Of a stretch of DNA of 64,000 bases, positions 9,874-11,338 are shown in pieces. The translations under genes were made by a program, and so were the position numbers. The stretch lies in NCBI RefSeq assembly GCF_000027125.1, contig NC_017626.1. The stretch is one strand, 5' to 3'. The notes below the pieces were generated by a model. It was not told where the DNA came from. It saw nothing but the letters and a program-made list of their open reading frames with translations, and ran no database searches. The first letter of the stretch is position 1. Every line of letters starts with the position of its first letter. Source of the stretch: Escherichia coli 042. Its GTDB lineage: Bacteria; Pseudomonadota; Gammaproteobacteria; Enterobacterales; Enterobacteriaceae.

Positions 9874-10634
9874 GTTGGAGTCATTACCTCCTCCCGAACT
9901 CAAAGCTATCATACAGATAATTACTGGTTAACCCTATATAGGGCATTTTAAAGTGTTGTGATCTTACCCAGCAATAGTGGACACGCGGCTAAGTGAGTAA
10001 ACTCTCAGTCAGAGGTGACTCACAAGACAAAACAGTTTCAACCAGTAAAAAAACGTAAACACCATTCGCATGAATTTCGTAGTTAAGATCTGAAGCTTGC
10101 AGAATGCATCGGTGTTACTGCCGGAGTCCGTGAACTTAGTCTGCATGAATCACCACAGCTTTACATCTGTCGCAGTAAACAGCAAAATCAGCAAACTTAC
10201 TTAATTATATCGAGTGCGATTACAATCGCTGGCGATGGTACAGTTGGTGTGGCGGTCTCAGTCCGGAACAATTTGAAAATCAGAATCTCACTTAAAACGG
10301 CATCCATTTTATAAAAGATGGCCGTCTGTGTATTTGTAATGAATACCTTCTACATGTTTAGAGTGCATAATCCACGACAAGGCGATATCCTAAAAATTAG
10401 CTAGCAGGCAACTTTGATGGCATAGATAATGTTTTTAGTAAAAAAGAGTTGACTGAATATAATACAGCCTCTTCCTACATAAGAAGGAATGTGCTCACAA
10501 AAAAAAACCATTAGTCTGCTTCCTGTTCTTACAATAATCAGTATTATGTATTTTATTTATATAGCAAAATATGCTTGTTACACCTGTCATAATTAGGCAT
10601 GGTAAAATTATTGACTGAACCCTGGGGGAGAAAG

Positions 10635-10892
10635 ATGCACAGTGATTATTATAATATGGTTTTTGGTGAAAAATTGGCCAATATTTTATATGAAGCTAAC
10701 TCTCAATTTTTTTACGAGAGAAATGTCATAGAAGAGGCAGTCAACGCTTTATTCTGTGAGCGTGAAATAATAAACAACAAGAACATAATAAAGAAGCTGA
10801 TGTTCTTTTTGTCAGATGTTAATCACACCAAGAAAGATGTTGTTCAGAGCGCACTTAATATTATCATTGACATTACATCAGGTGATATTTGA
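10635..10892 (+). CDS. hypothetical small protein (AT-rich orphan)
   Basis: ATG at 10635 preceded by GGGGGAGAAAG Shine-Dalgarno-like sequence; 85 codons; no recognisable family. Confidence 0.35.
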   Translation: MHSDYYNMVFGEKLANILYEANSQFFYERNVIEEAVNALFCEREIINNKNIIKKLMFFLSDVNHTKKDVVQSALNIIIDITSGDI

Positions 10893-11195
10893 GATTTTAC
10901 ATAAAAGATAATCTCTCAAGGAGTCTTATCTGAAAACGAAATATATAGTTCCTCTCGTTTTGTAATATCGATTGGCTTTGTTGAATCGGTTACGTACCCC
11001 GGAGCCGGTCATATTTTCAGGTAATACACACGCTTTCAGACATTTCGGCTTTCGTCATTTTTGTATCATGGGCATAGCTTCTGCTACCTGACCATCATAA
11101 TCACGCAGCTTCAGTGAAGCAGTGACCACCTGTTTAACCCGGTGTATCGTTATGATCTTATCCAGCAATTGAACCGCCCCGGGTTTCCTGGAGAG

Positions 11196-11338
11196 TGTTT
11201 TATCTGTGAACTCAGGCTGCCAGATCATCGTTTCCGATGGAAGCATAATAAGCTTTTTCTGCTTCTGCCGGTGGGATATGGCCCTGCCTTTCCAGCAATC
11301 GTCGATTGTTATACCAGTCCACCCACGTGAGTGTGGTC
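11196..11338 (-). pseudogene. transposase C-terminal remnant (IS3-family-like integrase core tail)
   Basis: Minus-strand translation ...TCQYDELTTLTWVDWYNNRRLLERQGHIPPAEAEKAYYASIGNDDLAA*; only about 47 codons, no upstream body. Confidence 0.45.

Follow-up and report, generated by a model that had tools for sequence, protein, structure and literature searches.

What lies in the nearly gene-empty, AT-rich DNA that opens directly behind an insertion sequence (IS) next to the fec operon of Escherichia coli 042? The question concerns a window of 64,000 nucleotides (RefSeq assembly GCF_000027125.1, contig NC_017626.1), the whole stretch of DNA analysed here, in which positions 9889-11200 had been singled out from the letters alone as about 1.3 kb of strongly AT-rich sequence just inside a copy of IS1 ("IS1 copy a"), with one orphan open reading frame (ORF), long non-coding runs and, possibly, regulatory DNA or small RNAs from a foreign source. 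The stretch is an IS-scarred junction of the fec/leuX-side genomic island, with four dead IS fragments between IS1F and a phytase-like esterase gene. The explanation that accounts best for the locus as a whole, and that we consider fairly probable, is that this junction holds an acquired cassette, that the cassette encodes an AriR-like regulator, and that the DNA in front of the gene is its control region, perhaps activated by EvgA.

The compositional anomaly is clear. The GC content of 9889-11200 is 0.378 (37.8%) vs. 0.496 (49.6%) for the whole 64-kb window, and equally low values occur in only 6.7% of all 1312-nt windows and in only 0.65% of those in the first 31 kb. Strong AT-richness is, however, confined to a core at 10295-10974 (GC ~0.32), narrower than the ~1.3 kb originally described, and the flanks are milder (0.37-0.43 on the left, 0.46-0.51 on the right). 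Further low-GC blocks at ~36000-43000 and 54000-56000 (GC 0.30-0.40) fall below 9889-11200, the minimum 1312-nt window starting at 41767. Only two ORFs of at least 60 amino acids (aa) are present in the stretch, one ending at 10892 with a possible start at 10599 or 10635 (+ strand) and a 63-aa ORF at 11055-11246 (- strand); the latter was rejected as a gene, being a chimera that spans two IS relics and has no Pfam hit. For annotation we relied on the Prokaryotic Genome Annotation Pipeline (PGAP) records of E. coli CV839-06, the genome of which is 100% identical to the stretch. Two relatives are used for comparison below, i.e., a diverged IncFII plasmid lineage sharing 87% protein and 94% DNA identity (the 87% lineage) and a plasmid-encoded protein of 46% identity (the 46% relative). 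The AT-rich core contains the following features:

10295-10634, + strand: AT-rich upstream region of the ariR-like gene, 34% GC, recognised by composition; homology to relatives begins at ~10360/10383
10472-10489, no strand assigned: conserved 18-bp imperfect palindrome TTCCTACA-TA-AGAAGGAA, EvgA-box-like, the core of a block at 10469-10508
10575-10592, no strand assigned: second, weaker EvgA-box-like site TTGTTACACCTGTCATAA, a pattern match with 3 mismatches
10635-10892, + strand: gene of the YmgB/AriR family, 85 aa, with the Shine-Dalgarno sequence GGGGGAG at 10624-10630
10893-10973, + strand: AT-rich sequence behind the gene (3' flank, 29% GC), to which the 87% lineage is homologous as far as 10957

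The gene at 10635-10892 carries the interpretation. Its product matches the Pfam family PF10798 (YmgB) above the gathering score (26.7 bits, with the cut-off at 22.3; E=4.9e-6; profile positions 2-59 of 59), aligns with K-12 AriR from end to end at 28% identity (85 vs. 88 aa), carries the invariant N-K-x-I motif in the alignment with AriR, and retrieves the structure 2OXL (YmgB) from the sequences of the Protein Data Bank (PDB) at E=1.2e-3 with phmmer. An AlphaFold2 (AF2) model built on a 26-sequence alignment is all-helical (predicted local distance difference test, pLDDT, 80.3), and its only meaningful Foldseek match is 2oxl_A, with probability 1.00, a template modelling (TM) score (target) of 0.83 and a root-mean-square deviation (rmsd) of 1.7 A over 57 columns. 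By homology, then, the protein is a divergent member of the YmgB/AriR family. It is a paralogue and not the AriR orthologue, because the gene stands alone among the IS relics of the fec island, outside the ycgZ-ymgA-ariR-ymgC operon that BluR/BluF control. That is, the "orphan ORF" turns out to be a genuine gene, as had been supposed, but one that was already annotated as a YmgB/AriR-family member.

The annotated gene model probably needs correction at its 5' end. The RefSeq/PGAP model (WP_000239862.1) is 97 aa long and starts at ATG 10599, 36 nt (12 codons) upstream of ATG 10635. We favor 10635 as the true start, with an 85-aa product, because the sequence GGGGGAG lies 4 nt before it, because the relatives start with MHSD... 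or MNSD... and are 85-86 aa long, and because a 1-nt difference in the 87% lineage places the equivalent of the upstream ATG out of frame; the start with the good ribosome-binding site, as noted originally, thus has more support than the one in RefSeq. Relatives at 87%, 46% and 36% identity retain the length of the ORF and, in the distant pairs, synonymous divergence (dS) is saturated at non-synonymous divergence (dN) values of 0.5-0.7, a pattern consistent with long-term purifying selection. The column of AriR Arg74 is occupied by Gln in the window protein and in its 87% relative and by Arg in the other 24 of the 26 aligned members. An exhaustive HMMER search over 1.84 billion representative proteins returned 15 hits, with only two distinct full-length relatives (46% and 36%), which places the protein in what is, judging from these hits, a narrow, Escherichia-centred clade. 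Neither the window protein nor any "YmgB-like" or AriR-family paralogue located in the fec island came up in our literature search. A linkage of the gene to the downstream phytase-like esterase was considered and dropped, the 445-aa protein encoded downstream of the 46% relative being unrelated to that esterase.

The upstream region provides the second line of evidence. Regulatory DNA, one of the contents originally proposed, is plausible there, in that the 40-nt non-coding block at 10469-10508 is the part of the locus most conserved with the 46% relative, containing its most conserved 30-nt window (77%, above any coding window). The reading frame across this block is kept on neither strand, and two short ORFs overlapping it, one of 35 aa at 10489-10596 (+) and one of 36 aa at 10401-10511 (-), were rejected, their frames not being kept in the 87% and 46% relatives in a by-eye codon comparison. 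The palindrome at the core of the block lies 155 nt upstream of the start codon and is identical in the 87% lineage; in the 46% relative it reads TTCCTACA-CA-TGCAGGAA, so that the half-sites are kept while the spacer varies, although the flanks have diverged. An A9 tract follows the palindrome at 10499-10507 and is present in the 46% relative too.

The palindrome resembles the EvgA box of acid-response promoters, the binding site of the response regulator EvgA, with the consensus TTCYTACA-NN-TGTARGAA (reportedly from Masuda and Church in 2002/2003 and Itou et al. in 2009). The consensus was checked against K-12 sequence only, where all matches with at most 2 mismatches lie upstream of emrK/evgA, frc, yfdX, safA-ydeO and ydeP, at 0-2 mismatches. 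Those operons are described as EvgA-activated or EvgA-bound (PMC3720670, PMC11052181, PMC4283999). Across the 64-kb window, the consensus TTCYTACANNTGTARGAA has a sole match at this threshold, at 10472-10489 with 2 mismatches, where 0.08 matches were expected, and when the 340-nt upstream region is shuffled by dinucleotides, only 0.08% of the shuffled sequences contain a site of this quality. The box of the 46% relative has 1 mismatch, and ~235 kb of other DNA gave no match with at most 2 mismatches outside the upstream regions of K-12 EvgA targets and orthologous copies of the palindrome, so that the pattern holds over ~300 kb in all. The distance from box to ATG is 122-165 nt in the cassette lineages vs. 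120-260 nt in the K-12 targets. The second site (10575-10592) falls within a 35-bp stretch that is missing from the 87% lineage, is absent in the 46% relative, and is probably not essential. Based on these patterns, EvgA control of the ariR-like gene is a prediction that we regard as possible but, on balance, not probable. Among other regulators, control of the BluR/ycgZ type was rejected, as the conserved block does not occur in the K-12 ycgZ promoter, and the RcsAB box and other motifs, compared by eye only, gave no fit.

How far the acquired DNA extends can be read from its relatives. The foreign unit measures ~0.6 kb at 32% GC, because the 87% lineage shares only 10383-10957 with the window, between different flanks (Tn3 fragments and IS1), and the homology of the 46% relative begins at ~10360. 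On this comparative evidence, the cassette is a low-GC, horizontally acquired unit of ~0.6-0.7 kb with the AriR-like gene as its sole gene. The idea of a foreign source thus held up well, with a cassette of 32% GC in a genome of ~50% GC, found in many E. coli and on IncF plasmids and absent from K-12. Conservation is also evident, in that the core (10296-11016) occurs in 1768 of the 5426 complete E. coli genomes, almost always as a single copy and at least 99% identical, and nearly all carriers keep the whole mosaic (1642 genomes at ≥80% coverage). The search of plasmid and phage databases suggested at the outset found the protein on 49 of 72,556 plasmids (tblastn, E<=1e-3; 41 from E. coli, 7 from Salmonella and 1 from Shigella). 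IncF plasmids of all three are among the carriers, and in every case remains of IS elements or transposons surround the cassette. Among phage records, matches are limited to the IS3 and IS903 pieces and do not include the cassette, and a phage origin was rejected on that account. Taken together, the alignments show that about one third of E. coli strains inherit the cassette together with its scars as a single unit and that this unit has also been copied onto IncF plasmids.

Two observations on the plasmid copies may be added. Genes or fragments of DUF6404 recur near ariR-like cassettes, on the chromosome at ~13090-13170 (corresponding to L001 9217-9294) and in two kinds of plasmids (L010 1362-1709; L016 5063-5410), which hints at a shared ancestral neighbourhood. 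Further, the plasmid protein P0028 is a chimeric 96-aa ORF that sits beside a ParE/YacB toxin-antitoxin pair (L020 156-1158).

The remainder of the stretch consists of debris, and the "long non-coding runs" therefore need qualification: such runs exist, but about half of their length is recognisable IS relics and not anonymous DNA. In CV839-06, PGAP annotates an IS1F pseudogene, two IS3-family fragments, the YmgB/AriR-family coding sequence, an IS5/IS1182 fragment and one more IS3-family fragment. The elements are as follows:

9121-9888, + strand: IS1F-like element (IS1 copy a) with both terminal repeats, its right end identical to K-12 IS1F; left border of the stretch
9889-9958, no strand assigned: spacer of 70 bp that separates IS1 from the IS3 relic, GC 0.37, the remnant of a longer segment
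9959-10196, + strand: left end of an IS3-like element, comprising the terminal repeat TGATCTTACCCAGC... and the 5' portion of insE; aligns with positions 1-238 of K-12 IS3B at 88.8% identity
10201-10294, + strand: 3' fragment (94 bp) of an IS3-like insF, aligning at 88.3% identity with the part of K-12 IS3B close to the insF end
10974-11153, - strand: relic of the IS903 group (IS5 family), terminal repeat GGCTTTGTTGAAT plus the 3' end of the transposase gene, recognised by alignment to IS903s
11154-11170, no strand assigned: 17 bp left of an IS3-type terminal repeat, TGATCTTATCCAGCAAT, truncated by the element that follows and resembling the IS3 repeat at 9959
11171-11343, - strand: right-end relic of an IS1203/IS629-like element (IS3 family), extending past the end of the stretch; PGAP "IS3 family transposase, missing N-terminus"

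The IS3-like element is a relic, with neither intact insE and insF nor both terminal repeats. The start codon of insE is mutated (PGAP calls the piece a frameshifted hypothetical pseudogene and the insF piece "IS3 family transposase, missing N-terminus"), ~0.9 kb has been deleted between the two pieces, and the right terminal repeat is absent from the alignment to K-12 IS3B. A hairpin, ACGGC...GCCGT at 10297-10325, follows directly after the insF fragment, where the IS3 right repeat would be expected (-9.2 kcal/mol, z -0.9, not significant against shuffles). The IS903-group relic, annotated as "IS5/IS1182 family transposase, frameshifted", has lost two internal segments that are present both in the IS903 of phage P7 and in an intact IS5-family copy that plasmid pZ1323SSL0011-2 carries at this very junction. 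The sequence at 11171-11343 is multi-copy in E. coli, at up to 50 places per genome, under the annotations "IS3 family" and "IS1203 family" transposase.

The spacer points to a longer original segment. Its first 50 bp also adjoin IS1 in plasmid p1493-3, at the same ykiE-IS1 junction, and there 2.5 kb encoding an MBL-fold hydrolase, a helix-turn-helix (HTH) regulator and an ester cyclase lie between the spacer and the same IS3 end. This 2.5 kb is missing from the window between 9938 and 9959, and the ester cyclase gene of the plasmid is itself cut by the IS3 end; in a local BLAST comparison, window positions 9955-9996 pair with the corresponding site in p1493-3. IncF plasmids share ykiE-IS1 together with the chromosome's right-hand IS1 flank (window 9040-9958; L002, from p1493-3, 2595-6038; L007 4287-5000); therefore, a piece of the chromosomal fec island has been captured on plasmids.

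At its left border, the stretch starts right after the right end of the IS1F-like copy at 9888, as had been described. This copy is a pseudogene with an internal stop (PGAP "IS1-like element IS1F family transposase"), and a second IS1 at 47717-48484, inverted and 90% alike, brackets with it 37.8 kb of island DNA. We rejected an IS1 composite transposon, as the outer flanks differ (ggggatttc vs. cagttgatg), with no matching 8-9-bp target duplications. Matching target-site duplications were found for neither IS1 copy nor for the pair, and the K-12 IS1F at the same fecI-side junction likewise lacks them, which suggests an IS1-mediated rearrangement rather than a simple insertion. As for the wider context, fecR and fecI (7413-8884, - strand) are followed by the IS1F-like copy in the same order as in K-12; past IS1F, K-12 continues into yjhU, whereas 042 continues into the AT-rich stretch. 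On the 3' side lie the phytase-like esterase gene (11625-12983), IS66 debris and a CP4-type island with Ag43 and CbtA/YeeU.

What might such a gene do? In K-12, AriR/YmgB is described as a connector that activates the Rcs phosphorelay and, independently of Rcs, binds SpoT and raises ppGpp (guanosine tetraphosphate); its conserved surface residue Arg74 is needed to bind SpoT and to accumulate ppGpp but not to activate Rcs, and the R74G variant has lost SpoT binding and retains Rcs-dependent mucoidy (PMC10704370). By homology, the window protein would work in the AriR-like mode, i.e., as a small helical protein that makes protein-protein contacts rather than binding DNA, and its most likely target would be the Rcs phosphorelay, with capsule increased, curli and biofilm decreased, and effects on acid resistance. 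SpoT is probably not engaged, because the SpoT-contact arginine of AriR is Gln in the window protein. The AT-rich region upstream would, somewhat less securely, be the gene's control region. Silencing by H-NS is expected for an insert of 32% GC. The control region is probably silenced in this way under standard conditions, and acid-sensing EvgS/EvgA may activate the gene through the palindrome at 10472-10489. Extended to its fullest form, the model holds that about one third of E. coli, K-12 not among them, carry a mobile AriR-like protein that is induced by EvgS/EvgA in mild acid and connects to Rcs or to some other pathway (envelope, biofilm or stress) but not to SpoT, with wiring shared with the 46% plasmid homologue. 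We regard this fullest form as speculative and rather unlikely; if true, it would represent a strain-specific extra branch of the acid-response network.

Several observations weigh against the favored explanation of an acquired AriR-like regulator with its own control region. The EvgA motif was recognised only after the conserved block had been seen, i.e., post hoc; the right half-site contains AGAA in the window and TGCA in the 46% relative vs. TGTA in all six K-12 sites, and the fourth base of the palindrome is C instead of the T found in the K-12 sites. A scan with promoter and terminator consensus sequences found no sigma-70 site or terminator-like site within the cassette, with an overall count below the shuffled expectation, and the -10-like hexamers spotted by eye (TATTAT at 10542 and TGGTAAAAT at 10600) were left unsupported by it. 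The alignment behind the AF2 model contained AriR itself. In the plasmid form P0028 (a cluster of 620 member sequences), the first 7 codons have been lost to a Tn3-family end, and the conservation of at least 99% covers the dead IS fragments equally; therefore, this conservation reflects common descent and not selection.

A rival to this explanation is that the gene is a silent passenger, a foreign AT-rich remnant silenced by H-NS, without present function, and kept because it rides on a young, clonally inherited island. The dN/dS ratio relative to the closest distinct lineage is 0.76, a value based on only 15 differences and thus too few to decide on recent constraint, and coding identity to the 87% lineage (94%) is similar to that of the flanking sequence (92% and 89%). 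Consistent with this alternative are also the equal conservation of the surrounding IS pieces, the frequency of the 5'-truncated form on plasmids, and the absence of the gene from two thirds of E. coli, K-12 included. Against this rival stand an intact ORF of constant length in lineages down to 36% identity, the saturation of synonymous sites in the distant pairs, the retained strong Shine-Dalgarno sequence, an upstream palindrome more conserved than the coding sequence, and the annotation of an intact gene in nearly all sampled genomes. We consider it unlikely, if a serious contender, that the gene has no function at present. Far less probable is the earlier idea that the AT-rich non-coding runs encode one or more foreign small RNAs or cis-regulatory RNAs. 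Room for them exists (no coding assignment falls on ~340 nt in front of the ORF and 80 nt behind it), as does a conserved non-coding block, but a search of both strands of 8800-11800 against Rfam returned nothing at E<=1, none of five candidate segments folds better than its shuffles (z -0.9 to +1.6; the 3' flank, 10893-10973, has z -0.38), the cassette contains no terminator-like site, and the conserved block, which forms only a 5-bp hairpin, has its half-sites arranged as in a palindrome bound by protein. The small-RNA part of the original prediction thus found no support. Least probable of all, in our judgement, is that the protein is a secreted, effector-like factor modelled on Orf131a of the Shigella virulence plasmid instead of a cytoplasmic regulator. 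A YmgB-like protein that is 27% identical to AriR, and whose gene has a GC content <40%, is secreted and translocated by the Shigella type III secretion apparatus (T3SA) (PMC5658099), some cassette carriers are serogroups positive for the locus of enterocyte effacement (LEE), e.g., O103 and O111-type strains, and the 46% relative lies among genes of the virulence-plasmid type (shf-like, virK-like). Against this, strains of many different backgrounds commonly carry the cassette, among them a laboratory strain derived from HB101/K-12 and isolates of commensal or environmental origin, no secretion locus is linked to it in the window, and tblastn at E<=1e-3 found no match to the window protein in Orf131a or any copy on the virulence plasmid pINV.

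For the most part, the locus is an ordinary and already annotated piece of the accessory genome, in which IS relics surround one small gene, a divergent paralogue within a known regulator family. Its main value is one of annotation, as the "empty" AT-rich DNA by the fec operon resolves into IS relics plus one regulator-family gene; what is modestly new is that the start codon is corrected, that the arginine contacting SpoT has been lost naturally and that an EvgA-box-like palindrome is conserved. Should the gene prove active, it would add to the "connector" class of small proteins, which rewire two-component signalling, an accessory and horizontally mobile member that many E. coli, pathogens as well as commensals, carry but that regulon maps based on K-12 do not show, and the arginine loss would make it a ready-made separation-of-function variant for the two activities of AriR. 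The predicted EvgA box is a simple, testable prediction.

Finally, it is useful to place the gene among known systems. Orf131a (SPA-ORF10) of Shigella flexneri pWR100 is likewise a small, AT-rich, YmgB-like ORF on a mobile replicon with transposase remnants around it (PMC5658099, PMC6489325), but it is a type III secretion system (T3SS) substrate encoded downstream of spaS, and no secretion system is linked to the window gene. SafA (B1500), the EvgA-induced connector of K-12, would be analogous if the EvgA lead is right, as a small protein behind an EvgA box that passes an acid signal to a second signalling system, with its box 120 nt upstream of safA vs. 155 nt for the window gene; the two proteins are, however, unrelated in sequence, SafA sits in the membrane and acts on PhoQ, and EvgA control of the window gene is only predicted.

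The 46% relative, protein P0064 (86 aa), encoded on ~150-kb E. coli plasmids (CP076275/CP076277), is the closest distinct relative. It resembles the window protein in its start (MNSD... vs. MHSD...), in having about the same length and in being preceded by the same palindrome and A9 tract, and differs in that the conserved Arg is kept, the EvgA-like box fits the consensus better (1 mismatch), and the neighbours are genes for polysaccharide deacetylase, a small multidrug resistance (SMR) protein, VirK/DUF535, a PmrD-like protein and a glycosyltransferase. PmrD-family genes stand near YmgB-family genes in two unrelated settings, on E. coli plasmids (L008/L009/L011; ymgB-like at 6001-6261 in L008), in the order shf-like deacetylase, ymgB-like, 445-aa protein, SMR, VirK/DUF535, pmrD-like and GT4, and at a chromosomal locus (L013 2825-3646), in the order EAL, MlrA-like, DUF1398, ymgB-like, pmrD-like and icd; the two small "connector" families appear to travel together. 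The best characterised point of reference is AriR/YmgB of K-12 itself (b1166; PDB 2OXL), with which the window protein shares PF10798, near-equal length, the N-N-K-N-I-I motif, the T-x-D-D C-terminus and the predicted helical fold. At 28% identity the two are nonetheless distinct, in that AriR belongs to the ycgZ-ymgA-ariR-ymgC operon next to bluR/bluF and the window gene is an IS-flanked orphan, Arg74 of AriR corresponds to Gln in the window protein, and the EvgA-box-like palindrome lies upstream of the window gene and not in the K-12 ycgZ promoter.

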